A stretch of DNA of 62,034 nt from Acidobacteriota bacterium (GCA_022562495.1 JADFPE010000003.1:1-62034), one strand, 5' to 3'; positions 5,223 to 62,019 are shown, counted from the first letter of the stretch. Program-made: numbers and translations. Notes: generated from the sequence alone by a model not told the origin.

Positions 5223-5314
5223 CAGCCCGTGGTGCACGTACCGCTGCATTCGAATGGCGCGGCCGCCGGCCCCTCGCCGATCTCGGTGCAACGTGGGACG
5301 TGCACCACGGGTTG
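5223..5314 (+). repeat. family-A palindromic repeat, short form (outer arms only, central core missing)
   Basis: CAGCCCGTGGTGCACGT...CTGCATTCGAATGGCG // CGATCTCGGTGCAACG...ACGTGCACCACGGGTTG. These arms match the outer stems of the full copies. Confidence 0.6.
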
Positions 5315-5337
5315 CGAGCGACCTGGTGGCTGTGTGT

Positions 5338-5366
5338 GCCCCGCCCCGATGGTGGGGCTTTTTTTT
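5338..5366 (+). terminator. Rho-independent terminator after tRNA
   Basis: GCCCC-(11 nt)-GGGGC followed by T8. This is the only clear stem plus long T-tract I found in the window. Confidence 0.7.
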
Positions 5367-5419
5367 GCTCGGGCCCCTCGCCACCGGACACTCGGACGAC
5401 CGTCGAGACGTGACACACG

Positions 5420-6166
5420 ATGCTGCCAGACCTTGAACGATTGATCCAGCTGCAACGACTCGACACCGCGGCCGACGAGGCGCGACGCACGGTCGACGGG
5501 ATCCCGTCGCGCATCGAGGATCTCGACACCCGTCTGACCGCCAGCACCACGGCGGTCGATGCGGCCAGGACGTGTGTCGAGGACAAGAAGAACGAGCGCC
5601 AGGCAGGTGAGAAAAGCCTTGCCGAGGTGCAGGGGCGCCTGTCGCGGTTCAAGGAACAGCTGATGGCGGTCAAGACCAACAAGGAATACACGGCGGTACA
5701 GCATGAGATCGCCACCGCCGAAGCCGAGGTCCAGCGGCTCGAGGACACCATCCTGGAGCACATGCTGGAAGCCGACGACCTGGCGGCCAATGTCGAGGCG
5801 GCCGAGCGCGCCCTGCAGGCCGATCGGGTGGAAATCGAGCGCGACCGTGCGGCGCTCGAGACCACACGCGCTGAGATGGAGCGCACGCTGAGCGGCACCT
5901 CGAACGAACGGGTGACGCTGACTGGGCACATCGGCGCGGCGGCACGCGAGCTGTTCGAGGCGGTCGCGAGACAACGGGGAGGTATCGCGGTGGTCGAGGC
6001 GCGTGACGGGCATTGCACCGTGTGCCACGTACGACTCCGCCCGCAAGTCTTCAACCAGATCCTCCGAAACACCGAGCTGATCCAGTGTGAGAGTTGTATG
6101 CGGATCTTGTATCACGACCCGAACGACGGAGGGGCGCGGGCACGCGAACACGACCCGGCCCGATGA
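5420..6166 (+). CDS. coiled-coil protein with C-terminal C4 zinc ribbon (COG1579/DUF164-like)
   Basis: Long heptad-rich N-terminus, KTNKEYTAVQHEI motif and C-terminal CTVCH..(19 aa)..CESC. It is paired with an RNase H gene, as in many genomes. Confidence 0.85.
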   Translation: MLPDLERLIQLQRLDTAADEARRTVDGIPSRIEDLDTRLTASTTAVDAARTCVEDKKNERQAGEKSLAEVQGRLSRFKEQLMAVKTNKEYTAVQHEIATAEAEVQRLEDTILEHMLEADDLAANVEAAERALQADRVEIERDRAALETTRAEMERTLSGTSNERVTLTGHIGAAARELFEAVARQRGGIAVVEARDGHCTVCHVRLRPQVFNQILRNTELIQCESCMRILYHDPNDGGARAREHDPAR

Positions 6167-6684
6167 CATCGGCCCGCGTGGTGGCCAATAGCGACGGCGG
6201 CGCACGGGGCAATCCTGGCCCCGCGGGGTACGGCGTCCGAATAGAACACGCGACCGGCGAGCTCACACACGAGTTGCACGCCCCGATCGGCGTGGCGACA
6301 AACAACCTCGCCGAGTATCGCGGCGTGATCGCAGCGCTGTCCTACCTGGCGGAACACGGCTACGATGACACGCCGATCCGCTCGGACTCGCAACTCTTCG
6401 TGCGCCAGATGCAGGGACGCTGCCGCATCCGGCATCCTGGTCTGCCACCCCTCTATCGGCAGGCCAAGGCATTCGCAGCCCAGCTCGGGCACGTGAGGCT
6501 CGAGCACGTGCGCCGCACCGAGAACCCAGAGGCGGACCTGCTGTCCCACGTCGCGATGGACGTGCAGGAGGCACGGGTGGGCGAACGCGCGAAGGAGTCA
6601 GCAGTCGGAAGTCAGACATCAGAAGAAGGCCGGCGGGCTGCACCGTCTTCTGGTCGAGCCTCGGGCTCCCCATCGACTGAATAG
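6163..6684 (+). CDS. ribonuclease H family protein with repeat-encoded C-terminal tail
   Basis: Internal ATG overlapping the upstream stop (ATGA). SDGGARGNPGPAGYG...TNNLAEYRGVIAAL...SDSQL motifs match RNase HI-type catalytic D/E/D positions. About the last 30 codons run into a heptad array. Confidence 0.85.
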   Translation: MTSARVVANSDGGARGNPGPAGYGVRIEHATGELTHELHAPIGVATNNLAEYRGVIAALSYLAEHGYDDTPIRSDSQLFVRQMQGRCRIRHPGLPPLYRQAKAFAAQLGHVRLEHVRRTENPEADLLSHVAMDVQEARVGERAKESAVGSQTSEEGRRAAPSSGRASGSPSTE

Positions 6685-6902
6685 CCCCTGTTCACCACGG
6701 ATGACCAGCCCACCCACAGACGCGGTACGCGCTCTCACTGTCTCGATCCTCACGCCGGACACCTCGCGGCGCCGGCTCGGGCAACGCCAGTTACATCGGC
6801 GCCGTCGACCCCGACAGACCGTCTGCTGGCGAGGCCCTCCGCTGTTCTCCTACCGTCCACCTTCTACCTGCGGCCTTCTGCGTTCTGCCTTCTGACTGCT
6901 CG
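6594..6902. repeat. family-B heptad arrays in inverted orientation flanking a ~230-bp spacer
   Basis: GGAGTCAGCAGTCGGAAGTCAGACATCAGAAGAAGG (6594-6629) and CCTTCTACCTGCGGCCTTCTGCGTTCTGCCTTCTGACTGCTCG (6860-6902). Confidence 0.55.
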
Positions 6903-7085
6903 AGCATTGGCCGGGGAACCTGCCGTTGACATTCCACCCAGGACGCTCCGCTCCCGCGTCGAACGTGAGCTCGGCAACCCCAAATCGCACAGGCAGTTGG
7001 CGCCGTCCAGCGACCGACGGCCAGTGTGGCCGACGCCTTGCATCCATGCCGGTCCAGCAGATACCAGACGCGAGGAGGATGACGG

Positions 7086-8879: not shown

Positions 8880-9113
8880 GGCCCCGCGTCGCGGGGCTGT
8901 GAGGTATGCCCTCTCGCGATGCGGCGCCGAACCGTGGCGACGTGGTTCGCGGCCCAGCATCGCTAGCCGTGTGTGACCAGGTCTCATCTGAACGCCTTGG
9001 TCACATGTCGCCGGCAACACACGGCGAGCCCCCGCGTAGCGGGGCTGTGAGGTATGCCCTCTGGCGATGTGGAGCCGACACATGTCGAGTGGTTTGTGGC
9101 GCAGCATCGCTAG
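8880..9113. repeat. two ~85-bp direct repeats in the ftsA-ftsZ spacer
   Basis: 8880-8966 and 9027-9113 both contain CCCCGCGT(C/A)GCGGGGCTGTGAGGTATGCCCTCT(C/G)GCGATG...GCATCGCTAG. Each unit holds internal hairpins. A separate inverted repeat lies between them (GTGTGACCAGG...CCTTGGTCACAT). Confidence 0.75.
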
Positions 9114-10379: not shown

Positions 10380-10547
10380 GTGTCTCGAGTCAGCAGCTCG
10401 CGAACATGTCATCCCGCCGTGGCGGTGGTGGGCGTGTCGCTCAGCAGGGTTGAATACTGCCGGTGTACTCGTCGCGCCGTGCGATGGCCAGACGCGACAT
10501 CAGTGCGACGCCGGAACATGTGTCCGCGAGTTGCTGACTCGGGACAC
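10380..10547 (+). repeat. family-A palindromic repeat (copy B)
   Basis: Arms GTGTCTCGAGTCAGCAGCTCGCGAACATGT / ACATGTGTCCGCGAGTTGCTGACTCGGGACAC around a diverged core (...TGAATACTGCCGGTGTACTCGTCGCGCC...). Overlaps the last 48 nt of ftsQ. Confidence 0.75.
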
Positions 10548-11417: not shown

Positions 11418-12901
11418 CGCGTCTCCGGTCGCTTCGCGTCGGGGTGACCCGCCCCGCCCACCTTCCGCCCGAGGGCCTCGATGAGCCGGCCAGCGACATC
11501 GCCAACCGACCCGGCGCCCAACGTCAGCACCAGATCGCCGGACCGCGCCAGGTCGGCGACCAGCGCGACCACCTCGTCGAGGGTCTGCACCTGGTGCACG
11601 GCTCCGTCCGTGTGACGACGCACGGCCTCCGCAAGGCGCGTCGCCGTGACACCTGGGATCGGCATCTCGCCGGCGGCGAAGATGTCGGTCAGGACCACCA
11701 CGTCGGCGGCTGCCAGCACACGCGCGAAGCGGTCGAGGAAGCGGGCGGTCCGCGAATACCGATGCGGCTGGAAGACCACCACCAAACGCGTGTGCGGCTG
11801 CCGGCGCGCGGTCGACAACACGGCGGCGATCTCCGTCGGGTGGTGACCGTAGTCATCGATCACGGTCACGCCGCCGGCGACGCCCCGGCACTGGAAACGT
11901 CGATCCACGCCGGCGAACTGGCCAAGCGCCGCCGCGATCCGTGCCGGCGCGAGCCCGATCTCCAACCCGACCGCGAACGCGGCGAGGGCATTGAGGAGGT
12001 TGTGCCGACCCGGCACGCCCACGCTGAGCAGCACGGTCTCGGTGCGGTGGTCGCGGGTAAATCGCACGCGGCAGCGGGACCCGGCCGCGTCGAGTTCGGC
12101 GGCGCCGCCGACGACGTCGGCGGTCGTGGGCTCGATCCCGTAGGTGACGACCCGCCGCATGATGCGGCCGCGCAGCCGGGTCAGCTCAGGATCGTCGGCG
12201 CACACGACGACCGACCCGGCCTCGGTCACCCGGTTCGCGAAACCGGCGATGGTGTCCCGCAGCCGCGCGAACGTGCCGTACTGATCGAGGTGCTCCTCCT
12301 CGAGATTGGTGAGGACGGCGATCTGCGGAGTGAGCTCCAGCAACGAGGGCTCGCTCTCGTCCGCCTCGACGACGAAGTACCGCCCCTGCCCGACCCGGGT
12401 GTTGCTCCCGAAGGCGACGACACGTGCGCCGATCACCGCCGAGGGATCCAGACCGCATTCCACCAGCACGACCGCCACCATCGCCGCCGTCGTGCTCTTC
12501 CCGTGAGAGCCGGTGACCGCAATGGTCGACCTGGACCGCGCCAATCCGGCCAGCATCACGCCACGTCGCATGACCGGCAGGTGGCGCCGCCGCGCCTCGA
12601 TCACCTCGGGGTTACCCTCCGACACCGCAGCCGAGACAACGACCGCTTCGGCGTCACCCACCCAGCGGGTGTCGTGCCCGATCTCGACGGCGATGCCGAG
12701 CCCGCGCAGCCGCGCCGTCACTGCGGACGCCGTCAGGTCAGACCCGCTGACCTCGTATCCGAGACAGCTCATCAACTCAGCGATACCGCTCATCCCGATG
12801 CCACCCACACCCACGAAGTGCACACGACGGGTGCCGTGTGGCAACCCGTGCCCCTCTCTCGCCCATTCCATAAGTACCGTCGCATTCGGACGCCGATCCA
12901 T
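11414..12901 (-). CDS. murC: UDP-N-acetylmuramate--L-alanine ligase
   Basis: HFVGVGGIGMSGIAE and TGSHGKSTT Mur-ligase motifs, in dcw context. Confidence 0.95.
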   Translation of the reverse strand: MDRRPNATVLMEWAREGHGLPHGTRRVHFVGVGGIGMSGIAELMSCLGYEVSGSDLTASAVTARLRGLGIAVEIGHDTRWVGDAEAVVVSAAVSEGNPEVIEARRRHLPVMRRGVMLAGLARSRSTIAVTGSHGKSTTAAMVAVVLVECGLDPSAVIGARVVAFGSNTRVGQGRYFVVEADESEPSLLELTPQIAVLTNLEEEHLDQYGTFARLRDTIAGFANRVTEAGSVVVCADDPELTRLRGRIMRRVVTYGIEPTTADVVGGAAELDAAGSRCRVRFTRDHRTETVLLSVGVPGRHNLLNALAAFAVGLEIGLAPARIAAALGQFAGVDRRFQCRGVAGGVTVIDDYGHHPTEIAAVLSTARRQPHTRLVVVFQPHRYSRTARFLDRFARVLAAADVVVLTDIFAAGEMPIPGVTATRLAEAVRRHTDGAVHQVQTLDEVVALVADLARSGDLVLTLGAGSVGDVAGRLIEALGRKVGGAGHPDAKRPETR

Positions 12902-12926
12902 CCCGCACGCGCCACGCTGGGGTTAC

Positions 12927-13023
12927 GGTGCAGCGGGGTCGCATCCCGCCGGTCTGCTCTTTCCTCGCGTAGGGTGGAACGACCGCGACACTGCGGAGCG
13001 GGCGCGCGCTGCGTCACTGCACC
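12927..13023 (+). repeat. family-A repeat, degenerate/short copy (D)
   Basis: GGTGCAGCGGGGTCGCATCCCGCCGGTCTGCTCTTTCCTCG...GCGCTGCGTCACTGCACC retains the GCATCCCGCC block and self-complementary ends. Confidence 0.45.
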
Positions 13024-13093
13024 TGTGACGCGGACCACGTCGCCCGCTCCGTCGTGCGCCCGTCACTCTCCGTCGGACCGCTCGACCCGTGGC

Positions 13094-14188
13094 TCACCAC
13101 CGCATCAACTGCTCGGCCCGGTCGACGATGACCCGGGCCGCATCCGGCCGGGCCAGCCCGCGGGCCGCCGCCGCCATGCGTCGGCGCCGCTCCCCGTCAC
13201 CCGCGAGCTGCAGCAGACGCTCAGCCAACAGTGCGCCCGTCATCCCCGCCTGCGGCATCACATCCGCCGCCCCAGCCCGGACGAACACGTCGGCGTTCAG
13301 CCGCTGGTGCCCATCCGTCGCTCCCGGCAACGGCACCAGCAACGCCGCCCGGCCCACGGCGGCGATCTCGGCCAGCGTGGTCGCGCCCGCCCGGCACACC
13401 ACCACATCGGCGTCACGCATGGCGTCGGCCATGTGCTCCAGGAACGGCTCGACCCGCGCCGTCAGCCCTGCGGCGGCATACACCTGCCGGACTGCGCTGT
13501 GATCCCGCTCGCCGGTCTGGTGCGTCACGACGAAGGGCGTCGGCGCCCCGACCAGGAGCGGGGCCGCCGCCATCATCGCGACGTTGATGGGATGGGCACC
13601 CTGCGACCCGCCGAGCACCAACAGATGCACCTCGGCGCGCTGCGCGGTCGGCGGCAGCGCCGTCTCGAAGAACCCGGCCCGCACCGGGTTGCCACTGACA
13701 AACCCCTTGCCGTGAAAGTGCGGCAACACCGGTTCGTGTGACACCGCCGCGGCCGTGACGAACGGCGCCAGCACCCGGTTCGTGATGCCGGGCAGCGCGT
13801 TCTGCTCGAGCACCAGCGTCGGGATACCGCGCAACGCCGCGATCAGCACGACGGCACCCGACGAGTACCCGCCCAGCCCGATGACGACGTGGGGCGCGAC
13901 CCGGGTGATGACTCGCCACGCGTCCCAGGCGCTGAGGGGCAACATCGACAGGCCACGGACCAGCGCACCGGCCGACTTGCCCTTGAGCCCGGCGCTGCGC
14001 ACCCGCTCGAGATCGAAGGCCAGCCGCTCGAGCGCCGCCAGCTCCAGGTCGCGTCCGGTGCCGGCGAACACCACCCTGGACCGTGGGTAGCGCCGTCGGA
14101 TCTCCTGCGCGACCGCGATCCCTGGGTAGAGATGCCCGCCGGTGCCGGCACCGCTCATCAAGACCCTGGGCGATCGCTGATCCGCCAT
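13094..14188 (-). CDS. murG: UDP-N-acetylglucosamine--N-acetylmuramyl-(pentapeptide) pyrophosphoryl-undecaprenol GlcNAc transferase
   Basis: SGAGTGGHLYPGIAVA N-terminal G-loop, 364 aa, in dcw context. Confidence 0.95.
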   Translation of the reverse strand: MADQRSPRVLMSGAGTGGHLYPGIAVAQEIRRRYPRSRVVFAGTGRDLELAALERLAFDLERVRSAGLKGKSAGALVRGLSMLPLSAWDAWRVITRVAPHVVIGLGGYSSGAVVLIAALRGIPTLVLEQNALPGITNRVLAPFVTAAAVSHEPVLPHFHGKGFVSGNPVRAGFFETALPPTAQRAEVHLLVLGGSQGAHPINVAMMAAAPLLVGAPTPFVVTHQTGERDHSAVRQVYAAAGLTARVEPFLEHMADAMRDADVVVCRAGATTLAEIAAVGRAALLVPLPGATDGHQRLNADVFVRAGAADVMPQAGMTGALLAERLLQLAGDGERRRRMAAAARGLARPDAARVIVDRAEQLMRW

Positions 14189-14191
14189 CTC

Positions 14192-14351
14192 GTGTCCAGG
14201 GTGAGGAGTTCATGAACATCTTCCGGGCGGGGCAGCCCGCCTGCCGGCGTTGCTCCTCGGTCAAATACTGCCGATATGCTCCCTCGTCGCGCCTTGCCAG
14301 CCGGGCACCGCGCGCCGGTTCATGTGTCCGCGAGCTCCTGACCCGGAACAC
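14192..14351 (+). repeat. family-A palindromic repeat (copy E)
   Basis: Core GGCGTTGCTCCTCGGTCAAATACTGCCGATATGCTCCCTCGTCGCGCCTTGCCAGCCGGGC. Arms GTGTCCAGGGTGAGGAGTTCATGAAC / GTTCATGTGTCCGCGAGCTCCTGACCCGGAACAC. Begins 4 nt upstream of the murG ATG. Confidence 0.8.
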
Positions 14352-14535: not shown

Positions 14536-15636
14536 TCATGCGTCCGCCGACGCGTGCTGGGAGACATTCAGAAGAATGCCCATCCCGAGCAGGCTGATCA
14601 GGAGCGACGACCCACCGGCGCTGACGAACGGCAGCGGGATCCCATTGGTCGGCATGAGACCCAACACGACGCTGATGTTGACGAAGGCTTGCAACGCGAC
14701 CATCATGGTGATCCCCAGCGCCAGAAACGCACCGAACCGGTCGGGCGCCGCCGCCGTGATGTGCAGCCCGCGCCAGATGATCACGCCGAAACACAGGAGG
14801 ACGGCCGTGGCGCCCAGCAGACCGGTCTCCTCGGCAATAACGGCGTAGATGAAGTCTGTGTGCGGGGCCGGCAGATAGAACAGCTTCTGGACGCCCGCCA
14901 TCAGCCCCTGGCCGAATAGCCCACCAGTGCCGACCGCGATCTGCGACTGGATGATCTGGAAGCCGTCGCCCAGCGGGTCCGCCCACGGGTCGAGAAAGGC
15001 GAGCAGCCGCCGGCGCCGGTAGTCGGCGCTGGCCAACACGACGAGCAGCAGTGGCACCACGACCACCGTCAGCCCAACCACGTAGCGATAGTGCAGACCT
15101 GCCGCGAACACCATGACGGCCACGATGAGCAGCACCGTGAACGCCGTCCCGAAGTCCGGCTCCGCCACGATCAGTCCACAGATGAGGCCGGTGACGACGG
15201 CGATCGGCACCAGCGTGGTCATCTGGTCGATCCTGTCCATCCGGCGATCGAGCACCGCTGCAGTGAAGATGATCACTGCGATCTTGGCGAACTCGGAGGG
15301 CTGCACGCCGATGCCGCCCAGCGCCAACCACCGGCGCGTGCCGTTGATGGGCGGCCCGAAGAAGACGACGGTCAAGGCGGCCGCGGACACACCCAGCGCG
15401 GTCCAGATCACGACCGGCTGTTTGAGACTTCGGTAGTTCACTCGCATGGCCAGGCTCAGCAGGCAGACACCGAGCACCGCCCAGGTCACCTGTTTGAAGA
15501 GAAAAAAATAGGGCGGTTGCTGAAACCGGTCCATGGCCAGGACCGCTGACGCGCTGTAGACCATCACGACGCTGGCGCAGACCAGCAGCAACGTAGCCAG
15601 GAACAGCAGCTTGTCCGATTTCAGTTTTCGCGCCAT
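14536..15636 (-). CDS. ftsW: lipid II flippase / SEDS glycosyltransferase FtsW
   Basis: Start chosen at MARKLKSDKLLFLATLLLV (codon 59 of ORF 14536..15810). Multi-TM SEDS family protein in dcw context. Confidence 0.93.
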   Translation of the reverse strand: MARKLKSDKLLFLATLLLVCASVVMVYSASAVLAMDRFQQPPYFFLFKQVTWAVLGVCLLSLAMRVNYRSLKQPVVIWTALGVSAAALTVVFFGPPINGTRRWLALGGIGVQPSEFAKIAVIIFTAAVLDRRMDRIDQMTTLVPIAVVTGLICGLIVAEPDFGTAFTVLLIVAVMVFAAGLHYRYVVGLTVVVVPLLLVVLASADYRRRRLLAFLDPWADPLGDGFQIIQSQIAVGTGGLFGQGLMAGVQKLFYLPAPHTDFIYAVIAEETGLLGATAVLLCFGVIIWRGLHITAAAPDRFGAFLALGITMMVALQAFVNISVVLGLMPTNGIPLPFVSAGGSSLLISLLGMGILLNVSQHASADA

Positions 15637-18413: not shown

Positions 18414-19837
18414 TCCGCTTCGAGCCGCGCCACCACGAGATCGGTCCGCACGCCCCGCGACCCCTTCACGAGCACCACATCATCGGCTTGCAGCATCGCC
18501 GTGAGCCGCGTCGCCGCTGCCTCGCTCACCTCGCAGTGGATGACCCGGTTCTCCGGCATGCCGGCCTCCACCGCTGCGGCGCCCAGCGCCTGGGCCGCCT
18601 CTCCCCCGACCGTCAGCAGCAGCCCCAGCCCGGCGGCGGCGGCGGCACGGCCGGTCGCCCGGTGCAAGACGTTCGCCCGCGCCCCGAGCTCGAGCATCTC
18701 ACCCAACACCGCGACACGGCGCCCGACACGGCGGTCGCGTGACAGTGTCTCGAGCGCGGTGACAACCGCCAGCGGGTTGGAGTTGTACGAATCGTCGACG
18801 ACTACCACGCCGCGCGCCAGCCGGCGTATCTGGCCGCGATGAGGCGGCGCGTCCACCGCCGCGACCCGCTCGGGGATCGCCGCCAGCGGCACCTGGAGCT
18901 GCAACGCCACCGTGACCGCCGCCAAAACATTCGCCAGGTTGCCGCGACCAAGCAACGGCGTGGTGACGGCGGTCGCGCCGACGGGCGTCCGGACCCGCGC
19001 TCGAGTGCCGTCGAGCCCGAGGTCCTCGACCTCGGTCGTGGTCACCTCGGCCTCCGCCTCGACCCCGAAGGTGGCGACCCGGCCGGGGAATCCAGACACA
19101 CGGGTCATAACCAGGTCATCCGCCGCGTTGGCGACGACGACGGTGTCCGGCGTCGCGCGTTCCAGGATCTCCGCCTTCGCGTCGGCGATCGCCGCGATCG
19201 AGGGGAAGAACGCTGTGTGCACTTCGGCGACGTTCGTCCAGACTCGCAGCTCCGGCTCGGCGATCTCGACGAGTCGGCTGATCTCCCCGGGTCCGTTCAT
19301 CCCGAACTCCACCACCGCGACCTCGGGCCGCGTCCGCAGCTCCAGCAGCGAGAGCGGCAGCCCGATGTGGTTGTTCAGGTTGCCGCGGTTCCGGAACACG
19401 CGGTATCGCGCCCCCAACAATGCCGCGGTCAGTTCCTTGGTCGTGGTCTTCCCCACACTTCCAGTGATCGCGACGACCCGTGCCTTCGACGCGCGGCGGA
19501 TGTACCGGCCCAACGCCTGCAGGGCCCGCACCGTGTCGTCCACCACCACCCCGATCGCCGGCGACGACCCGAGCGCGGCCGCGTCACTGACAATCGCGCC
19601 ACAGGCGCCCCGCCCGAACGCGTCGGCCACAAACGCGTGACCGTCGAAGCGGTCGCCGCGAATCGCGACGAACAGGTCACCCCGACTGAGTGACCGCGAG
19701 TCTATGGAGAACCCGTCGATCGGGGTCTCCGCCGCGCCGGCCATCACCCGCCCGCCGACGGCCTGCGCGAGATCGCCCAGCGTCACCGGTAGCCGTTCGC
19801 GCATCGCCCTCGCCACTTCGTGTGCCGGGCGGGGCAT
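18404..19837 (-). CDS. murF: UDP-N-acetylmuramoyl-tripeptide--D-alanyl-D-alanine ligase
   Basis: DSRSLSRGDLFVAIRG and TGSVGKTTTKE motifs. An alternative start is at 19804 (MRERLPVTL). The first ~8 codons of the long form resemble the family-A left arm. Confidence 0.92.
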   Translation of the reverse strand: MPRPAHEVARAMRERLPVTLGDLAQAVGGRVMAGAAETPIDGFSIDSRSLSRGDLFVAIRGDRFDGHAFVADAFGRGACGAIVSDAAALGSSPAIGVVVDDTVRALQALGRYIRRASKARVVAITGSVGKTTTKELTAALLGARYRVFRNRGNLNNHIGLPLSLLELRTRPEVAVVEFGMNGPGEISRLVEIAEPELRVWTNVAEVHTAFFPSIAAIADAKAEILERATPDTVVVANAADDLVMTRVSGFPGRVATFGVEAEAEVTTTEVEDLGLDGTRARVRTPVGATAVTTPLLGRGNLANVLAAVTVALQLQVPLAAIPERVAAVDAPPHRGQIRRLARGVVVVDDSYNSNPLAVVTALETLSRDRRVGRRVAVLGEMLELGARANVLHRATGRAAAAAGLGLLLTVGGEAAQALGAAAVEAGMPENRVIHCEVSEAAATRLTAMLQADDVVLVKGSRGVRTDLVVARLEAECS

Positions 19838-19925
19838 CCCGCCTGGACGGCGTTACTCTTCGGTCGACTCCAGCCCGTCTGCTCCCTCGTCGCGCTTTGC
19901 ACTGGCCGGGCGCGGCATGCGTACG
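19834..19925 (+). repeat. family-A repeat, partial copy (G)
   Basis: GCATCCCGCCTGGACGGCGTTACTCTTCGGTCGACTCCAGCCCGTCTGCTCCCTCGTCGCGCTTTGCACTGGCCGGGCGC. Fills the murE-murF spacer. Confidence 0.6.
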
Positions 19926-23493: not shown

Positions 23494-23509
23494 CGTCGTC
23501 TCGATAGTC

Positions 23510-24798: not shown

Positions 24799-24804
24799 TG
24801 CGGA

Positions 24805-25245: not shown

Positions 25246-25253
25246 TCTACTAC

Positions 25254-25278: not shown

Positions 25279-25282
25279 TGCG

Positions 25283-28640: not shown

Positions 28641-28813
28641 CAGCGGTCCGTGGTGACCATCCAGTCGCATTCGACCGGCGCTGCATCTCGCCGGCCTAGG
28701 TTGCTCCTCGGTCACATAGTGCCGGTCTGTGTCCTCGTCGCGCCCTGCCGGTCGAGCGCGGCATCGATCACGACGAGTCTCGGTGGGACACAGGACGTTC
28801 ACCACCGGCTGCC
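28641..28813 (+). repeat. family-A palindromic repeat (copy K)
   Basis: CAGCGGTCCGTGGTGACCATCCAGTCGCATTCGACCGGCGCTGCATCTCGCC...GGTTGCTCCTCGGTCACATAGTGCCGGTCTGTGTCCTCGTCGCGCCCTGCC...GTTCACCACCGGCTG. Located in a convergent spacer. Confidence 0.8.
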
Positions 28814-29582: not shown

Positions 29583-29761
29583 GTAGCAGTCCGTGGTGAC
29601 AGTCGCGCGTCGCACCGAGGGTCGTCGCGATCGACGCCGCGCCGGGCCCCTGCAAGACGTGACGAGGGAGCATATCGGCAATATTCGACCGCGGAACAAC
29701 GCAGGCGGGGCGGATGCAGCGCCAGCCGGTTGCAGCAGGACATTCACCCCGGGCTGCTCAG
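29583..29761 (-). repeat. family-A palindromic repeat (copy L)
   Basis: The reverse complement carries ...GCTGCATCCGCCCCGCCTGCGTTGTTCCGCGGTCGAATATTGCCGATATGCTCCCTCGTCACG... Ends are GTAGCAGTCCGTGGTGAC / TTCACCCCGGGCTGCTCAG. Sits between the sigma and anti-sigma genes and supplies the sigma gene's last codons and stop. Confidence 0.8.
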
Positions 29762-32251: not shown

Positions 32252-32409
32252 GGGTCCGGTCAAGAATACGTTCGCAATCTTGTGGGCGTCGAGGCGCCCG
32301 GCTGGTAAGACGCGAGGAGGGAGCATACCGGCAGTATTCGACCGACGAGTAACGCCACCAGATGGGATGGATCGGCGGCCGGAAATGTGAAGTTGTTCTT
32401 GACCGGGCC
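32252..32409 (-). repeat. family-A palindromic repeat (copy M)
   Basis: The plus strand carries GCGCCCGGCTGGTAAGACGCGAGGAGGGAGCATACCGGCAGTATTCGACCGACGAGTAACGCC. Copy-specific arms GGTCCGGTCAAGAATACGTTCGCA / TGTGAAGTTGTTCTTGACCGGGCC. Confidence 0.8.
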
Positions 32410-32420
32410 CCAACGTTCAG

Positions 32421-40175: not shown

Positions 40176-40178
40176 AGC

Positions 40179-43258: not shown

Positions 43259-43358
43259 GAGCAGCGTCTCGATTAACTGGACGGCGCCGCGCTTCGTCGA
43301 ACCCCGCGCGGCCTCGGGCGGGCCTACAGGCCGTTGCTACGACCGGCGCGCGCGGCGT

Positions 43359-45476: not shown

Positions 45477-45553
45477 ACTTAGTTGGGGCTTCGCCCCACA
45501 CCCCACGCGGTCGCTTGCGGGGACCCCAACGCCCCGCACCGCGCCCGGTCGTC

Positions 45554-45862
45554 CTACCAGCGCATCACGTTCATCTCGTCGATGTTCACGGTCTCCTTAT
45601 TCCGGAAGAACGCCAGAAGGATCCCGAGCCCGACCGCGGCCTCGGCCGCGGCCACCGCGATCACGAACACGACGAACACTTGACCCACCAGGTTCTCGAG
45701 ATGCCGGGCGTTCGCAACGAGGTTGATATTGACCGCGTTGAGTATCAGTTCGATCGACATGAAGATGATGATGATGTTGCGACGCACCAACACGCCGACC
45801 ACCCCGATGATGAACAGCGCGGCGGAGAGAAGTGCATAGTGCGCCGGTGTGATCTCCATCAC
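45554..45862 (-). CDS. nuoK: NADH-quinone oxidoreductase subunit K
   Basis: 102 aa, three TM helices, [10 protein letters not shown] motif. Confidence 0.95.
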
Positions 45863-45892
45863 GGCTCTGTCGTCTCCCAGTCGTCCAACGGG

Positions 45893-46408
45893 TTACAACT
45901 CACGCTTGGCCAACACGATGGCGCCAACCATGGCGACCAGCAGCAGCACCGACGCCACCTCGAATGGAATCAGATAGTCGGTGTAGAGCAGCCAGCCGAT
46001 CTGCTCGACATTGCCCTGGACCGGTGACGCCGCGGCGGCCGCCACCGGCGCCGACGGTTCTCGGCTGTAGCTGTAGACCACGATGCCGGCCAGCTCGAGC
46101 AGCACCGCCCCGGCCAGCGCCAACCCGACCAGACTGAGCCGCCGCGGGTCCTGGTGTGCCTCAGGATCGCGCTTCAGGTTCACCAGCATGACCACGAAGA
46201 GATACAGCACGACGATGCCGCCGGCATAGACCAGCACCTGGATCACTGCCAGGAACTCCGCCTCCAGGACGACGTAGATCACCGCCACACAGAGGAAGTT
46301 CATGACGAGAAACAGCACGCTGTGCACGGTGTTCGGGGTGGTGATGACCGCCACCCCCAGACCGAGGATCAGTGCCGAGAGCGTGTAGAAGACGATGGTT
46401 TCGACCAT
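45893..46408 (-). CDS. nuoJ: NADH-quinone oxidoreductase subunit J
   Basis: 171 aa, VYAGGIVVLYLFVVML motif. Begins 3 nt after the nuoH stop. Confidence 0.92.
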   Translation of the reverse strand: MVETIVFYTLSALILGLGVAVITTPNTVHSVLFLVMNFLCVAVIYVVLEAEFLAVIQVLVYAGGIVVLYLFVVMLVNLKRDPEAHQDPRRLSLVGLALAGAVLLELAGIVVYSYSREPSAPVAAAAASPVQGNVEQIGWLLYTDYLIPFEVASVLLLVAMVGAIVLAKREL

Positions 46409-46411
46409 GGG

Positions 46412-47449
46412 TTACAACAACCACACCTTCACGACGGCGGTCACCACGATGTTGGCAAGGGCGATCGGGATCAGGACCTTCCAGCCGATTCGCATCAACT
46501 GGTCGTAGCGGTACCGCGGCAACGTGGCCCGGATCCAGATGAAGAGGTACAGAAACACGAACATCTTGCCGAAAAACCAGACCCAGCTCGGGATCAGGTC
46601 CAGAAACGCCAGGTTCAGGAACGACAGCGCGCCGACGCTCGGGAACAGCGCGTCGACGCTCGGGAACGGTCGCAGCCAGCCGCCCCAGAACAGCGCAGTG
46701 ACCACCGCCGCGATGACGATCATGTTCGCGTATTCCGCCAGGAAGAACAGTGCGAACCGCATCCCGCTGTACTCCGTGTGGAACCCGCCCGTCAGCTCCT
46801 GCTCCGCCTCGGGCAGATCGAACGGGATACGATTGGTCTCGGCCAACCCGCCGATGAACACCAGCACGAACGCCACCGGCTGCACGAACCCGAACCAGAA
46901 ACCGGTCTCCTGCTGCGCCTCGACGATCCCCACCATGCTCAACGTGCCGGCGGTCAGGATGACGCTGACCAGCGTCATCGTGACGGCGATCTCGTAGCTG
47001 ATGAGCTGCGCGGCCGCTCGGAGACTCGCGAGCAGCGGGTACTTGCTGTTGGAGGCCCAGCCGGCCAGGATGATCCCGTAGACGCCGATCGACGTCACCG
47101 AGATGATGAACAGCAGCCCGACGTTGATGTCGGTGATGTAGAACAGCGCGTCCCCGCCGAACGGCACCACCGAAAAGACGACCAGCGCCGGCACCAGCGA
47201 CAGAATCGGCGCCAGGGTGAACATCCACTTGTCGGCCTTCGTCGGAGTGATGTCCTCCTTCAGGATCAGCTTGATCGGGTCCACGATCGCCTGCAGCACG
47301 CCCCAGGGCCCGACCCGCATCGGCCCGAGCCGTGACTGCGCCCACGCGATGACCTTCCGCTCGAGCAGGACCATGAAGGTGACCGACACGAGCACGCCGT
47401 TCAGCACCACCGCGATCTTGAACAACGGAATGATGACGAGGTCGATCAT
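46412..47449 (-). CDS. nuoH: NADH-quinone oxidoreductase subunit H
   Basis: Starts MIDLVIIPLF (codon 62 of ORF 46412..47632). LERKVIAWAQSRLGPMRVGPWGVLQ and FDLPEAEQELTGGFHTEYSGM motifs. Confidence 0.94.
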   Translation of the reverse strand: MIDLVIIPLFKIAVVLNGVLVSVTFMVLLERKVIAWAQSRLGPMRVGPWGVLQAIVDPIKLILKEDITPTKADKWMFTLAPILSLVPALVVFSVVPFGGDALFYITDINVGLLFIISVTSIGVYGIILAGWASNSKYPLLASLRAAAQLISYEIAVTMTLVSVILTAGTLSMVGIVEAQQETGFWFGFVQPVAFVLVFIGGLAETNRIPFDLPEAEQELTGGFHTEYSGMRFALFFLAEYANMIVIAAVVTALFWGGWLRPFPSVDALFPSVGALSFLNLAFLDLIPSWVWFFGKMFVFLYLFIWIRATLPRYRYDQLMRIGWKVLIPIALANIVVTAVVKVWLL

Positions 47450-47457
47450 CGCGAGGA

Positions 47458-47609
47458 CCCGGACGGAGATACGTGTGCCACGTCTGAACGTCGAGGCGCC
47501 CGCCCAGCAAGGCGCGAGGAGCGCGCATGCCGGGAGCATGTAAGCGACGAGCAACGCAGCTGGACGGGACGGATCGGCGGCCAGACTGGCACAGTTGTCT
47601 CCGTCCGGG
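47458..47609 (-). repeat. family-A palindromic repeat (copy N)
   Basis: The plus strand carries GGCGCCCGCCCAGCAAGGCGCGAGGAGCGCGCATGCCGGGAGCATGTAAGCGACGAGCAACGC. Copy-specific arms CCCGGACGGAGATACGTGTGCCA / TGGCACAGTTGTCTCCGTCCGGG. Fills 152 of the 163 nt between nuoD and nuoH. Confidence 0.8.
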
Positions 47610-47612
47610 TCT

Positions 47613-48734
47613 TCACCTGTCGACCTCGCCAATCACGACGTCGATGGTGCCGATCAGCGCCACCACGTCGGCGACCAGATGCCCGATGATCAGCGGCTTG
47701 AGCCCCTGCAGATTGCAGAACGACGGCGGTCGGACACGCAGCCGATAGGGGTTGGTCGAGCGTCCGTCGCTCACGATGAAATACCCGAGCTCGCCCTTCG
47801 GTGACTCGATCGCATGATACGTCTCACCCGCCTTCGGCTTGATGAGCCGCGGCACCTTGCCCATCACGGGGCCGTCGGGCATCCCGTCGACCGCTTGGCG
47901 GATGATGCGAAGCGACTGCCGGAACTCCTCCAGCCGGATGAGATACCGGTCATAGGTGTCCCCATTCGTGCCGAGCGGCACGTCGAACTCGAACTCGTCA
48001 TAGGCGGCGTAAGGTTCGTCTTTCCGCACGTCCCGGTAGACCCCAGACCCGCGTAGCGGCGGGCCACAGAGACCGAGTGCGGTCGCCGCCTCGCCGGAGA
48101 TCACCCCGATCCCGCGGGTGCGCTCGAGCCAGATCCGGTTGTTGGTGAGTAGCTCCTCGTACTCCGGAATCCTGGAGTCCATGACATCGCAAAACGCACG
48201 CACCTTGCGACCCCATCCGGTCGGGATGTCGAGCGGGAGCCCGCCGATCCGCATGCAGTTGTAGGTCAACCGGGCGCCACAGTACTCCTCGAACAGATCG
48301 AGAATGAGCTCACGCTCACGAAAGGCGTACATGAAGACCGTCATCGCCCCGATGTCCATGGCGTGCGTGCCCAACCAGAGGCAATGACTGGCGACCCGCT
48401 GGAGCTCGGCGAGGATGGTGCGGATGTATCGTGCCCGCCGGGGCACCTCCACCTCCATGAGCTTCTCGACCGTCTCGCAGTAGCCCAGGTTACTGGTGGC
48501 GGCGGAGACGTAGTCCATCCGGTCGGTCAGCAGGATGATCTGGGTCCAGTCCCGGTTCTCGGTCAGCTTCTCGATGCCCCGATGGATGTATCCAATGACC
48601 ACATCGGCGTCGACGACCCGTTCGCCGTTGAGCCGCAGGATCACGCGGAGCACCCCATGGGTGCTCGGGTGTTGCGGGCCCATGTTGAGGACCAGCTCGT
48701 CGGTGTCGAACATCGGCGCTGCTTCGATGGCCAT
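47613..48734 (-). CDS. nuoD: NADH-quinone oxidoreductase subunit D
   Basis: [32 protein letters not shown] and GEVDR C-terminus. Confidence 0.96.
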
Positions 48735-48889
48735 GACTCGCTGACCTCGCTAGGTGTGGCTCGCAGCCCGCGGCGAACGTCGCGCCGCATCCCGGCTGAC
48801 TCCGTTGCGTCCCGGTCGCATCCTGCGGATATTCTCCCTCGTCACGCCGTGTCCGCCGAGCTCGGCGTCGACCATGCACGGTGGATCGG
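48735..48889 (+). repeat. family-A repeat (copy O), preceded by a terminus fragment ending in CTAG
   Basis: GACTCGCTGACCTCGCTAG | ...CGCAGCCCGCGGCGAAC...GCATCCCGGCTGACTCCGTTGCGTCCCGGTCGCATCCTGCGGATATTCTCCCTCGTCACGCC... Occupies the whole nuoC-nuoD spacer. Confidence 0.65.
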
Positions 48890-49588
48890 CTATTCGATCT
48901 CCGTCTCGTCCGTCATGTTCCGCAACCGCAGCCACTCCATCGGGCTCTCCAACAGGTACTCGCCCGGCCCTTCGAGCGGGTAGTCCTTCCGTTGCGGATG
49001 CCCCTGCCAGTTCTCGGGCATCAGGATCCGGCGCAGATCGGGGTGCCCGGTGATCGTCACCCCGAACATGTCCCACAGCTCGCGCTCGAGCCAGTTGGCG
49101 GCCGGCCACAACCCGGTCACCGACGGCACCGGTTCGTCCTCGCCCGCCCGCACCTTGATGCGGACCCGGTGGCGGCGGCGGATGGAGTACAGACAGTAGA
49201 TGACGTCGAAGCGCTTCTCCCGCGGCGGCCAGTCGCTGGCCGTGACGTCCACGCAGTAGTCGAACGACCCTTCGTCCGACTCCTTCAGGAAACGGGCGAC
49301 GTCGAGCAGCGACGTCGGCGACACGATCACGGTCCAGTCGCCGACCCAGTAGCTGAGCTGCTCCACCGCTTCGGGCAACGCCGTCTGCAGCGCGACCAGG
49401 AACGGCGGCCGCTCGAGGTCGTCGGGTGGAGGCGGATCGGTCGGCCCCTTGGGGGCCTCAGGCGGCGCCTTGGGCCTGGGCTTGGGTCTGGGCTTGGGTC
49501 TGGGCGCCCGCGCGGCCGAGGCAGCCGGCGTCTGGTCGGCGGATGACGGGTCAGCCGTGTTGTCGCCCGGTTTCGTTTCGTCTGCCAT
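48890..49588 (-). CDS. nuoC: NADH-quinone oxidoreductase subunit C with Pro-rich N-terminal extension
   Basis: Core ...[10 protein letters not shown]...[34 protein letters not shown]. About 65 aa of N-terminal extension include [12 protein letters not shown]. Confidence 0.93.
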
Positions 49589-49624
49589 GGAACGGTGTGG
49601 TCACCCAGACACGTTGGCCGACTT

Positions 49625-49790
49625 CGAGCAGCCCGTGGTGAAAGTCCAGCTGCATTCGACCGGCGCTGCATCCCGCCTGTCTACGTTGCTCCTCGGTCAC
49701 ATACTGCCGGTATTTTCCATCGTCGCGCCTTGACAGACAGGCGCATCACCGGTCTCGGTGCAACGCTGGACTGTCACCTCGGACTGCTAG
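49625..49790 (+). repeat. family-A palindromic repeat (copy P, near-consensus)
   Basis: CGAGCAGCCCGTGGTGAAAGTCCAGCTGCATTCGACCGGCGCTGCATCCCGCCTGTCTACGTTGCTCCTCGGTCACATACTGCCGGTATTTTCCATCGTCGCGCCTTGACAGACAGGCGCATCACCGGTCTCGGTGCAACGCTGGACTGTCACCTCGGACTGCTAG. The terminal CTAG contains the nuoA stop. Confidence 0.85.
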
Positions 49791-50143
49791 ACCCAGTCCA
49801 GCGCGCCCTTGCGCCATGCGTATACGTAGCCAAGCACCAGGATGAAGAGAAAGACCAGCATCTCAATCAACCCGAACAGGGCCAGCTCGTCCATGATGAC
49901 GGCCCAGGGAAACATGAACACGGTCTCGACGTCGAAAATGACGAAGAGCATCGCAATCAGGTAATAGCGGACACTGTAGCGACCACGCGCGTCCGTGTCC
50001 GGCTCGATCCCGCACTCGTACGGCTCGAGCTTCACCTTGTTGTAGCGCGAGGACTGGACCAGCCCGGAGATGATCAGGGTGAAGATGGCGAAGCCGATCG
50101 CGACCAGCACGAACAGCATCACCGGGATGTATGCGTCAGGCAT
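49787..50143 (-). CDS. nuoA: NADH-quinone oxidoreductase subunit A
   Basis: 118 aa, with YECGIEP, FVIFDVE and YAWRKGALDW. Confidence 0.95.
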   Translation of the reverse strand: MPDAYIPVMLFVLVAIGFAIFTLIISGLVQSSRYNKVKLEPYECGIEPDTDARGRYSVRYYLIAMLFVIFDVETVFMFPWAVIMDELALFGLIEMLVFLFILVLGYVYAWRKGALDWV

Positions 50144-50280
50144 GGACGGTTATTCTACAGCGAGACGAACCGACAGCGAGTCCCCTCAACGTACACGCAC
50201 CTCGATTCACCCGGAAAGCTCAGATGCGGCAGGGTTGGTCGTGGCCGATGACTCGACCTGCGGGCCTAGAAACCGGGCGT

Positions 50281-50310
50281 TTTATAGCACGCGCCTTCTG
50301 GGGGTGTCAA
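50281..50310 (-). promoter_or_regulatory. candidate sigma-70 promoter of the nuo operon
   Basis: The minus strand reads TTGACA-18 nt-TATAAA, about 130 nt upstream of the nuoA ATG. Confidence 0.55.
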
Positions 50311-50429
50311 GGAACGCGAGGCCGATGCCGAGGCGCACCGGACAATCGACAACCTCAGTGTTTGCTGTGGGTTCACCCACGCGCCCCGGCACGCCGCCGT
50401 GGACCGTCCGGAACCCCGATGCCGGCGCC

Positions 50430-50658
50430 CTTGCAGCCGGTGGTGACAGTCCGGCGTCACACCGGTCCTCGAGGTCGACGCCGCGCACGACCCGTGCACG
50501 ACGTGAGGAGGGAGGAGACCGGCAGGATGTGACCCCGTTGCGCGACACGCCCAGCGCAGTCCCCTGCGGAGGCAGCGGCCTTCGGCAGGCTCGGGGCGTC
50601 GCAAGGGCATCGAGGGGCGCCACCTGAAGACAGCTGGACTGTCACCACGGGCTACGAG
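50430..50658 (-). repeat. family-A palindromic repeat, long variant (copy Q)
   Basis: Ends CTTGCAGCCGGTGGTGACAGTCC / GGACTGTCACCACGGGCTACGAG. The plus strand has the reverse core ...GACGTGAGGAGGGAGGAGACCGGCAGGATGTGACCCCGTTGCGCGACACGCC... Confidence 0.7.
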
Positions 50659-50827
50659 GACCGCGTGGAACGGGATTACCGCTATACTTTCCTGAGCAGG
50701 CTGCTGATGGAACTCACAGCGTGCCGGGTTCCGGGATCCGGGTTGGCATCGATGGCGCGCGAGACGACCGGGGCGCCCACCACCTCGAATCCCACACCCC
50801 GAAACCCGAATCCCAAGAACGCTAGAG

Positions 50828-61042: not shown

Positions 61043-61169
61043 AGGCGTCGCCAGCGTCTGTGTCACAGCCCGCGGTGCCCGCCACCAAGAGGGAACGCGA
61101 ACAGGACTCCCGACACCTGCTGCAACCGTCCCGGTCGGTCCCGACGCCAGTGATATCATCCTGGTAGCC

Positions 61170-61335
61170 CTAGCAGCCCGTGGTGAAAGCCCCGCTGCAT
61201 TCGAACGGCGCTGCATCCCGGCTGGCGGCGTTGCTTCTCGGTCGAATACAAGCCGGTATTCTCCCTCGGCGCGCCTTGTCAGCCGGGCGCATCGCCGTAC
61301 TCGGTGCGACGCGGGGTTTCACCACGGACTGCTAG
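61170..61335 (+). repeat. family-A palindromic repeat (copy R, near-consensus)
   Basis: CTAGCAGCCCGTGGTGAAAGCCCCGC...GGCGTTGCTTCTCGGTCGAATACAAGCCGGTATTCTCCCTCGGCGCGCCTTGTCAGCCGGGCGC...GCGGGGTTTCACCACGGACTGCTAG. Confidence 0.85.
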
Positions 61336-61432
61336 CAGCCCGGGGGTGAAGGTCCCGCCGCATTTGGCTGGTGCTGCATCCGTCCCGACGGCGTTGTTCC
61401 TCGGTCGAACACTGCCGGCATGTTGCCCTGCG
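61332..61432 (+). repeat. family-A repeat, left half only (copy S), abutting copy R through a shared CTAG
   Basis: CTAGCAGCCCGGGGGTGAAGGTCCCGCCGCATTTGGCTGGTGCTGCATCCGTCCCGACGGCGTTGTTCCTCGGTCGAACACTGCCGGCATG, then unrelated sequence. Confidence 0.7.
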
Positions 61433-61456
61433 TATCGGCGAGAGTGTGCGAAATTG

Positions 61457-61726
61457 GTGAGCATCGTGATAGGAACACTCACCGCACAGATCGCCGATTG
61501 CGTCGACGATACCGGCAGGGTGGACAGTTGCGGTGCTGGGAACCAGGTGGGTTTCGCGCTGGGCGCGGCGGGGATCTATGCCGCGATCGGTACCGCCATC
61601 GATGCGTTGATCCAGGGGCGGACTACGCTTTACGAAGCCCCTGCTGCGAGTTCAGCACGTCAGGATCGATTCGAAGGACGCCCAAGCTCCGCAATCAGCG
61701 CCCTGAGCGCAACGTTCAGTTGGTAG
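61457..61726 (+). CDS. hypothetical small Gly/Ala-rich (glycine-zipper-like) protein
   Basis: GTG inside ORF 61304..61726, whose 5' part is repeat-derived. GFALGAAGIYAAIGTAIDALI segment. Weak evidence. Confidence 0.3.
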   Translation: MSIVIGTLTAQIADCVDDTGRVDSCGAGNQVGFALGAAGIYAAIGTAIDALIQGRTTLYEAPAASSARQDRFEGRPSSAISALSATFSW

Positions 61727-61847
61727 CGATCGCCTGCGAAAGCCGGCAATCGGTGGCGAAAGTCCCGCGTCGCACACGAGCCGAGACCGGTGTGGCTACG
61801 GCCCGGTCTGTACCGGCTGATCGACACCGACCCATTCATCGGTGGGG

Positions 61848-62019
61848 CCTTAGTGGTCCCGGTCATAATTACGGTACCGCACCGAGGGTGGCGAGGCGCC
61901 CGGCTGGCAAGGCGCGACGAGGGAGCAAATTGGGGGATTTGTGACCGAGGAGCAACGCCGTCCAGGCGGGATGCATCGCCAGCCGAATGCTACCGTAATT
62001 ATGACCGGGGCCACTTAGG
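61848..62019 (-). repeat. family-A palindromic repeat (copy T)
   Basis: The plus strand carries GGCGCCCGGCTGGCAAGGCGCGACGAGGGAGCAAAT...GTGACCGAGGAGCAACGCCGTCCAGGCGGGATGCATCGCCAGCCGAATGC. It is flanked by a ~29-bp copy-specific inverted repeat CCTTAGTGGTCCCGGTCATAATTACGGTA / TACCGTAATTATGACCGGGGCCACTTAGG. Confidence 0.85.

Follow-up and report, generated by a model that had tools for sequence, protein, structure and literature searches.

A dispersed family of hairpin-forming miniature inverted-repeat transposable elements in operon junctions of Vicinamibacterales

Imperfect palindromes scattered through intergenic DNA make up several described systems in bacteria, with which we compare here a repeat, designated family A, that recurs in a 62,034-nt stretch of DNA from an Acidobacteriota bacterium (GCA_022562495.1 JADFPE010000003.1:1-62034; the whole stretch is called the window hereafter). 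Close in form are ERIC (enterobacterial repetitive intergenic consensus) and the Correia (nemis) elements of Neisseria, which, like family A, are MITEs (miniature inverted-repeat transposable elements) built as imperfect palindromes of ~100-160 bp that bear terminal inverted repeats (TIRs) as well as a conserved centre, and which likewise lie in transcribed intergenic regions, operons included; alternative terminal-repeat variants exist among the Correia elements. The ERIC and Correia hairpins are co-transcribed and cut by RNase III (Correia) or RNase E (ERIC), and the mRNA level is affected (PMC10969869). Family A has no evident sequence relation to either and comes from another phylum; whereas ERIC and Correia duplicate a plain TA, family A duplicates TNA in C|TNA|G, or CTAG, and it is further set apart by at least four end classes on one interior, a candidate IS5/IS1182-like partner and a measured 9:1 orientation bias. 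Chunjie, a MITE found in Geobacter uraniireducens (178-235 bp), resembles family A in its conserved terminal repeats and direct repeats, but host, sequence and size differ; in the window family A reaches a far higher density, with one copy in about every 4 kb and seven copies in two essential operons, and it uses stop codons as targets. Repetitive extragenic palindromes (REPs) and the bacterial interspersed mosaic elements (BIMEs) are also abundant extragenic palindromes in transcription units that are thought to affect mRNA stability, but REPs are 20-40 nt long with GTAG/CGTC heads, have neither TIRs nor a target duplication and are moved by Y1 transposases (PMC3733652, PMC2817692). The last comparison is with the IS5/IS1182 insertion sequences (ISs) and the NuwaII group of the PIF/Harbinger-IS5 (PHIS) superfamily, which family A resembles in the DUF772 plus DDE_Tnp_1 architecture of its candidate partner transposase and in the C|TNA|G target of NuwaII; family A itself codes for nothing, NuwaII is eukaryotic, and no such partner was found for types III and IV.

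Inverted repeats, a TNA/CTAG duplication and ends in common with DDE insertion sequences mark family A as a MITE rather than a REP or a palindrome-associated transposable element (PATE). It is previously undescribed and falls within the known class of prokaryotic MITEs: the elements are non-coding and fall within the ~50-800 bp of that class, carry TIRs longer than the 10-15 bp expected at the least, duplicate their target, are dispersed in multiple copies and are polymorphic among strains and species, and an autonomous partner with matching ends was found for type I only. We hold with considerable confidence that family A is moved by DDE transposases, is tolerated at stop codons and has its orientation under transcript-level selection. 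The Vicinamibacterales (Acidobacteria subgroup 6) are abundant in soil and genetically almost unstudied, and now have a defined and abundant mobile element with a candidate transposase; the family should be useful for strain typing, for understanding the fragmentation of assemblies and metagenome-assembled genomes (MAGs), and possibly as a genetic tool.

Family A in the window and its relatives

The initial annotation had listed at least 15 copies. A profile hidden Markov model (HMM) built from four full copies and searched over the window recovered all 15 sites, at E-values between 5e-54 and 1e-4, and also picked up a fragment at 61745-61796, which makes 16 copies or fragments in 62 kb, on the plus and the minus strand as had been claimed. 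That they constitute a real dispersed family of imperfect palindromes is agreed on by the computed multiple alignment of the window copies, in which a common core is present, by a 33-nt degenerate core pattern that matched seven window copies against none in 100 shuffles, and by the predicted hairpins; alignment and profile E-values together show the listed sites to be similar. Family A totals ~2.3 kb, or 19% of the non-coding DNA of the window, the GC content of which is 66.4%. An assembly or binning artefact, or a set of independent GC-rich palindromes such as convergent terminator hairpins, would be suggested by the source being a metagenome assembly and by unrelated GC-rich hairpins in the spacers of relatives. 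This explanation is hardly credible, because the same locus with the same copies is found in six independent metagenome assemblies (ENA, JGI and Logan; 98.6-99.8% identity), some 100 homologous copies exist in several MAGs, the shuffles give no pattern matches and terminator-like U-tracts are absent.

Seven copies lie within two operons whose genes were confirmed by Pfam. The dcw cluster, on the minus strand, comprises ftsZ, ftsA, ftsQ, murC, murG, ftsW, murD, mraY, murF, murE, ftsI, rsmH and mraZ, and the nuo cluster, also on the minus strand at 40179-50143, comprises nuoA-C-D-H-J-K-L-M-N; no nuoB, E, F, G or I lies within the latter, and the order is identical in the related loci L007-L009 (loci sampled outside the window are denoted by L and a number). 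The inflated spacers reported earlier proved exact to the nucleotide: ftsQ/ftsA 154, murG/murC 192, ftsW/murG 347 and murE/murF 126 nt in dcw, and nuoA/nuoC 198, nuoC/nuoD 155 and nuoD/nuoH 163 nt in nuo. In relatives whose NuoD is 89-95% identical, a comparison that the initial annotation had called for, the orthologous nuoC/D junctions measure 25, 7 and 7 nt and the nuoD/H junctions 2, 0 and 0 nt.

A scan with the core pattern, one genome per species, returned 64 loci, nearly all from Vicinamibacterales/Acidobacteria MAGs; the carriers include SZUA-1123, Fu_MAG_63, Arabian11_MAG_46 and the complete chromosome OY759970.1, and a profile search of the 64 loci yielded ~100 more copies with E down to 1e-48. 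The window belongs to the Vicinamibacterales, as L073, a locus from a MAG of this order, is syntenic with window 22336-27624 at 82-85% identity. With seven core-pattern matches in 62 kb the window lies well above the density of the scanned genomes (up to ~27 per MAG), which suggests a lineage-specific burst or a local hot spot. The element had not been assigned to any named family, and none emerged: Rfam at the gathering threshold returned only a tRNA-Met in the window, and at E<=10 over 47300-50800 nothing overlapping any copy; the plasmid and phage collections held no match, viral contigs gave zero matches to the core pattern, and the literature searched contained no account of a MITE or intergenic repeat in Vicinamibacterales. 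Short-motif likenesses to the tRNA T-arm or RNase P, which have no Rfam support, are taken as coincidental.

Element structure, target sites and candidate transposase

The initial annotation was right in recognising a repeat family, and missed its subfamily structure, its insertion at stop codons and its orientation bias. The anatomy of the unit was drawn by aligning 57 full copies, which come from five or more MAGs; boundaries were set by arm-to-arm extension alignment, as minimum free energy folding of 281-nt pieces ran into the flanking genes. Measured from one terminal repeat to the other, copies form discrete size classes of 156-160, 167-171 and 177-184 nt (units of 158, 169 and 182 nt). 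The TIRs are perfect over ~22-25 nt, the terminal 12 nt within copies are 88% complementary, and each complete copy folds as a whole into a long hairpin, with energies of -60 to -137 kcal/mol (z -3 to -9). At least four terminal-repeat classes surround one interior, with several rarer types besides: type I ends in CAGCCCGTGGTGAAAGTCC, type II, found in the window, in GTGTCTCGAGTCAGCAGC, type III in GGGCCCGCGCAAGAAT or GGGTCCGGTCAAGAAT and type IV in TGGCCCCGGTCATAAATACGG, all end types having the loose terminal motif G-nnG-CCCG in common. The interior is moderately conserved and partly self-complementary, and encloses an asymmetric centre, GGTCRAATACTGCCGGTATKYTCCCTCSTCGCGCCTTG (core GGTCRAATACTGCCGGTATKYTCCCTCSTCGCGCC), that is nearly invariant over ~40 nt in all classes and across species; the window copies, which were found by eye, show the same conservation. 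Chimeric copies occur, L036 having a type I left and a type III right end and L030 a type III left and a type IV right end, as do short end-only derivatives (window 5223-5314 and L052). There is no conserved open reading frame (ORF) in the units, and the ATG of the centre reads ATT in many copies. From a MAFFT alignment RNAalifold derived only a weak consensus (-9 kcal/mol), since arms cannot be aligned between types, and covariation between the arms was judged uninformative, since the ends of a MITE must co-vary for their transposase.

The flanks of the copies point to the target. In types III and IV, 13 copies have one and the same 3-mer at either flank (TAA, TTA, TGA, TCA, ATA), and in no copy are the two complementary, which indicates a true 3-bp TNA duplication in C|TNA|G rather than an extension of the palindrome. 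Type I copies occupy CTAG sites, where duplications of TA and of CTAG are indistinguishable because CTAG is palindromic. The duplication is the stop codon of the adjacent gene in 17 of 58 full copies (29%). The base composition of the window would predict ~192 CTAG sites, of which there are only 32, at a density of 1.83 per kb outside gene interiors and 0.20 inside, a ninefold difference; the availability of targets and regeneration of the stop codon are taken to explain the strictly intergenic placement at operon junctions. In this way a transposon can colonise the tight junctions of essential operons, by targeting the few TA-containing motifs (stop codons) of a GC-rich genome and regenerating them.

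Filled and empty sites further document mobility. Alignment with the relatives places the nuoD/H element of the window exactly at the ancestral stop codon, GACAGATAG.CGATG compared with GACAGGTGA[159 nt]CGCGATG. Filled/empty pairs are formed by L014 (TTCTAG|CAGCCCG) and L044 (TTCTAATG), by L045 (GAGTAA|GGGTCCG) and L050 (GAGTAAGGCT), and by L032 and L061; in the comparisons between MAGs the flanks are ~82% identical, too diverged to read duplications, two better pairs excepted. No copies retained at orthologous sites between species were found among these loci, L045 and L050 being independent insertions. Between strains, L002 and L003 (98.6-99.5% identical to the window) lack window 49624-49781, the nuoA/nuoC copy.

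The initial annotation had named RAYT (REP-associated tyrosine transposase) and IS200/IS605-type genes as mobilisers to be sought. A REP/BIME spread by a RAYT (Y1/HUH), or palindromes derived from IS200/IS605 that move as single strands and owe their bias to the direction of replication, would account for intergenic hairpins with no transposase nearby. As had been stated earlier, the window holds no mobilising gene: no transposase domain was found in its ORFs by Pfam, and tblastn of the partner transposases described below against the window gave only noise (best E 0.3). The units of 158-182 nt with TIRs of 22-25 nt are nevertheless far from REPs of 20-40 nt with GTAG/CGTC heads (PMC3733652), and the TNA duplication was seen 13:0. 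A DDE IS with identical ends exists besides. IS200/IS605-type elements are not known to produce a target duplication or to have inverted repeats. Single-stranded movement of this kind is therefore very improbable, and RAYT or IS200/IS605 mobilisers are unsupported; the TIRs, the TNA/CTAG duplication and the DDE IS ends speak for a MITE of the DDE type.

Candidate mobilisers of type I were found in metagenomes, which were scanned with a pattern comprising the type I end and two positions that exclude the subterminal sequence of family A (the pattern leaked on 0 of the 17 MITE ends in hand that match a plain TAG plus inverted-repeat pattern). More than 120 loci were obtained. In ~25 of them an ORF of 450-480 aa is enclosed by two type I ends at a distance of 1.24-1.92 kb (1.44-1.51 kb in most), with (C/T)TA(G/A) as flanks; these soil-metagenome ISs, of 1.44-1.58 kb, bear the type I end CAGCCCGTGGTGAAAG (16-19 nt in common) and CTAG flanks like the type I MITE. 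An example is L143:3292-4780, with a 464-aa transposase at 3353-4747, which is near-identical in L119 and L124. The ORFs contain DUF772 and DDE_Tnp_1, both above the Pfam cut-offs, and are 43-100% identical among themselves. Annotated relatives of ~52% identity reside on Sphingobium plasmid pCHQ1 and on plasmid pLB1 (where the label is 'IS5 family transposase'), in 1,457-bp ISs that occupy CTA(A/G) sites and carry the related end CAGGCCGTTGACGAAG; they terminate in CAGGCCGTTGACGAAGTC, of which 13 of 18 positions agree with type I. Judged by its domains and profile scores, the transposase is placed in the IS5/IS1182 superfamily as a member of neither curated NCBIfam family, and on the strength of the shared ends and flanks IS5/IS1182-like ISs likely mobilise type I copies. 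The NuwaII group of the PHIS superfamily uses a C|TNA|G target with a 3-bp duplication (PMC4482050), matching the behaviour of types III and IV, and TA-rich duplications of 2-3 bp are typical of the superfamily (PMC4482050, PMC12730594).

The same sampling by ends uncovered related MITEs that bear on the origin of the hairpin. L120, L154, L174, L183, L184 and L080 carry MITEs of ~160 nt with type I termini and a diverged interior; the L120 group retains the central design of family A, with a GAATAC-N5-GTATTC mini-hairpin that has runs rich in pyrimidine to either side of it on one strand. A second hairpin MITE family of 147-171 nt with type I ends and CTAG flanks (L121, L127, L158, L172, L181, L185) has an interior unrelated to family A (…GCACGCTCGAGCG…GGCCACCTCCGCC…). 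At L126:614-1136 a non-autonomous element of 523 bp is an inverted duplication of the left end of an IS, with arms 74% identical, into which the transposase gene extends by its first ~60 codons. It shows the fold-back of one end to be a route to long-hairpin derivatives in this IS group, and family A may have begun by fold-back of one IS end.

Orientation, transcription and the conserved centre

The orientation of each copy was set by the asymmetric centre and counted between co-directional genes, the strict count requiring both genes within 400 nt. Antisense copies outnumber sense copies 32 to 7, and 27 to 3 in the strict count (binomial p = 8e-6); four sources agree in the direction of the bias, with 10:3 for DQNS, 5:0 for DASCQF, 4:0 for JASLOY and 7:0 for the window, where by our reading two sense copies (29587, 47454) were missed by the automatic gene calls. 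In the favoured orientation the mRNA carries the strand complementary to the model (...GGCGCGACGAGGGAGCAUACCGGCAGUAUUCGACCGAGGAGCAAC...). Folded as RNA, this strand is 7.9 kcal/mol more stable on average (Wilcoxon p = 2e-6, n = 58), because mismatches between the arms, for example where all left repeats have GCCC and all right repeats GTCC, give G.U there and C.A on the other strand. The favoured strand exposes purine-rich (GGAG-like) internal loops, whereas the rare orientation exposes CUCCUC and CUCCCUC loops, which are C-rich and anti-Shine-Dalgarno-like, in a weaker hairpin. A scan for promoters and terminators gave nothing above shuffle expectation.

Marked orientation bias is also what spread by a RAYT could produce through replication direction. 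A bias of 90% exceeds what a correlation of gene strand with replication could give, and the element flips with gene direction, as at 32252, where the copy is on the minus strand and the genes on the plus strand; a replicative cause was rejected on these grounds. The bias together with the better folding of the transcribed strand leads us to infer that selection on orientation acts at the transcript level; on the predicted folds, the rare orientation may cause polarity or hinder the translation of cistrons next to it. The common orientation is predicted to give a long, almost perfect hairpin, resembling those on which RNase III or RNase E acts in Correia and ERIC transcripts (PMC10969869). The 9:1 bias is a testable signature of a fitness effect of a hairpin MITE at the level of the transcript.

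We propose the following scheme for family A. DDE transposases of the IS5/IS1182 (PIF/Harbinger-like) superfamily would move the copies in trans, and insertion duplicates TNA in C|TNA|G, or TA/CTAG. Such motifs are scarce within the genes of this 66% GC genome and concentrated at stop codons and in spacers; copies would land at gene ends, where the duplication would restore the stop codon, and this would make them tolerable in the tight dcw and nuo junctions. The element would be transcribed within the operon mRNA and form a hairpin of -80 to -108 kcal/mol. The counter-selected strand with CUCC(C)UC would disturb translation of the neighbouring cistrons or promote polarity, and the favoured hairpin would probably influence the processing or stability of the mRNA, as the hairpins of ERIC or Correia do.

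Several observations weigh against this scheme. The IS and family A share the terminal 17-19 nt only, the central module is absent from the ISs, and the interior of family A has no IS counterpart. Of the best NCBIfam matches of the transposase, that to IS1182 (NF033551; 174.9 bits, E 2.8e-51) lies below the 270-bit cut-off and that to IS5 (IS5_4; 85 bits) below the 140-bit cut-off. Neither the window nor ~590 kb of MAG loci with the MITE yielded an autonomous IS in searches for long TIR pairs and all-versus-all repeats, and none of the loci examined joins IS and MITE in one genome; the contigs that carry the IS are metagenome fragments with no label, and the metagenome loci offered no IS partner for type II, III or IV ends. 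The 'empty' nuoA/nuoC allele of L002 and L003 is more likely a secondary microhomology deletion than a pre-insertion site; its junction, delimited by 4-nt AGTC repeats, still has the beginning of the element, CTAGCAGTC. The MAG loci were fetched by the core pattern, and conservation of the core among them is partly ascertainment. Transcription of the element, formation of the hairpin and the effect on mRNA are inferences from sequence and predicted folds.

One conserved centre on several end types raises the question whether it serves the element or the host. Family A might be primarily a functional RNA or protein-binding module that regulates operons in cis, its mobility being secondary, in the manner of a domesticated 'wiring' element. 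The near invariance of the ~40-nt centre across end classes and species, its absence from the IS, the 27:3 bias and the transcription of the better-folding strand would all fit such a module, as would the recurrence of GAATAC-N5-GTATTC in the diverged MITEs, which were sampled by their ends and not by the core. We nevertheless regard it as unlikely: the copies bear selfish hallmarks (duplicated targets, copies that are decayed or truncated, tandem and nested insertions, polymorphism between strains), their neighbours are unrelated genes, no orthologous retained copies were found between the species compared and Rfam returned no match, while purging of the harmful orientation alone could give the bias and the core conservation is in part a product of the sampling. 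A bolder proposal, which we consider rather doubtful, is that the centre is a functional module, a GAATAC-N5-GTATKC mini-hairpin plus two GGAG purine loops on the transcribed strand, that binds an RNA-binding regulator, a ribosome or an RNase and that several different transposase/end systems have carried to operon junctions in their hundreds. If true, it would mean MITE-borne post-transcriptional control of cistron stoichiometry in dcw and nuo of the Vicinamibacterales. A MITE moved by DDE transposases, with selection on orientation, remains the reading that we favour for the copies below.

Individual copies and neighbouring repeats

In the dcw cluster all four copies lie on the plus strand, antisense to transcription. 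The type II copy at 10380..10547 (ends GTGTCTCGAGTCAGCAGCTCGCG...) fills the ftsQ/ftsA spacer; the ftsQ reading frame enters it by 48 nt (10500-10547) with a stop at 10500, and the MITE appears to supply the last ~15 codons of FtsQ and the stop codon. In the murG/murC spacer the copy at 12872..13023 is degenerate, with a recognisable core and decayed ends. A second type II copy, at 14192..14351, occupies the ftsW/murG spacer, where the ATG of murG is 3 nt from the element edge at 14192 (window 14186-14194), and the murE/murF spacer holds a core-only remnant without terminal repeats (19828..19925).

In the nuo cluster a type III-like copy of 159 nt (47454..47612, minus strand) sits in sense at the nuoD/nuoH junction, adjoining the nuoD stop codon TGA (47613-47615) at one end and lying 4 nt before the nuoH ATG (47447-47449) at the other. 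As murG and nuoH both start at element edges, their ribosome-binding regions fall inside the terminal repeat, at the hairpin's base, and translation of murG and nuoH could be coupled to unwinding of the hairpin by the upstream ribosome. The nuoC/nuoD spacer contains a partly decayed type I copy (48764..48889, plus strand, antisense) that adjoins the nuoC stop codon (48890-48892), and the nuoA/nuoC spacer an intact type I copy of 158 nt (49629..49786, plus strand, antisense) whose flanking CTAG provides the nuoA stop codon. Upstream of nuoA, in a divergent region, lies a long type I variant of 221 nt with a differing left interior (50434..50654, minus strand).

Elsewhere in the window, a short type I derivative of 92 nt (5223..5314, plus strand) between tRNA-Met and gene 5420 keeps both TIRs (CAGCCCGTGGTG... 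/ ...CACCACGGGTTG) and is missing the conserved centre. A type I copy of 171 nt with slightly decayed ends (28641..28811, plus strand) lies between the convergent genes 27797-28561(+) and ogt 28821-29576(-), and another of 170 nt (29587..29756, minus strand), one of the few in sense, between ogt and an ECF (extracytoplasmic function) sigma factor gene. The murJ/rhomboid spacer carries a type III copy of 159 nt (32252..32410, minus strand, antisense) with ends GGGCCCGGTCAAGAAC... / ...TTCTTGACCGGACCC and flanks TTG / TTA. Close to the right end of the window, an intact type I copy of 158 nt (61174..61331, plus strand) with CTAG on each side forms the best hairpin, at -108 kcal/mol, and is followed by a truncated type I copy (61336..61432, plus strand) in a head-to-tail insertion, the CTAG at 61332-61335 being common to both. 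The fragment at 61745..61796 (minus strand), found by the profile HMM and not among the 15 earlier sites, is the right end of a type I copy, and a type IV copy of 160 nt (61854..62013, minus strand; ends TGGCCCCGGTCATAATTACGG...) has CTAAG on both sides, giving a TAA target-site duplication.

Other repeats and features were seen in the same regions. A 99-nt 'tRNA-Pro' called by ARAGORN at 19511-19609 (minus strand) lies within the murF coding region, has no Rfam support and is probably a false positive. A direct repeat of 59 nt (8882-8940 / 9030-9088, 86% identical), which begins with CCCCGCGTCGCGGGGCTGTGAGGTATGCCC and is unrelated to family A, is held in the ftsA/ftsZ spacer, unusually long at 333 nt. 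The heptamer CTTCTGA and its complement TCAGAAG form inverted arrays at 39924-39968 and 40107-40180, flanking ~138 nt downstream of nuoN, and a similar array follows the rhomboid gene at 33342-33382; they appear to be a second kind of intergenic hairpin-forming repeat. At L069:3050-3540 inverted heptamer arrays, (CAGGAGG)n ... (CTCCTGT)n, form an intergenic hairpin with a family A copy in its loop, and the orthologous L021 site has arrays of this type with the MITE absent. In L007, whose NuoD is 95% identical, the nuo operon is free of family A, and the nuoK/L and nuoL/M spacers (12972-13227 and 15371-15572) are expanded by a different hairpin repeat rich in GC, GGCGCGCAxxTGCGCGCC ... GGGGCGCAGCCCC; repeats at operon junctions thus seem to recur in the lineage as a trait.

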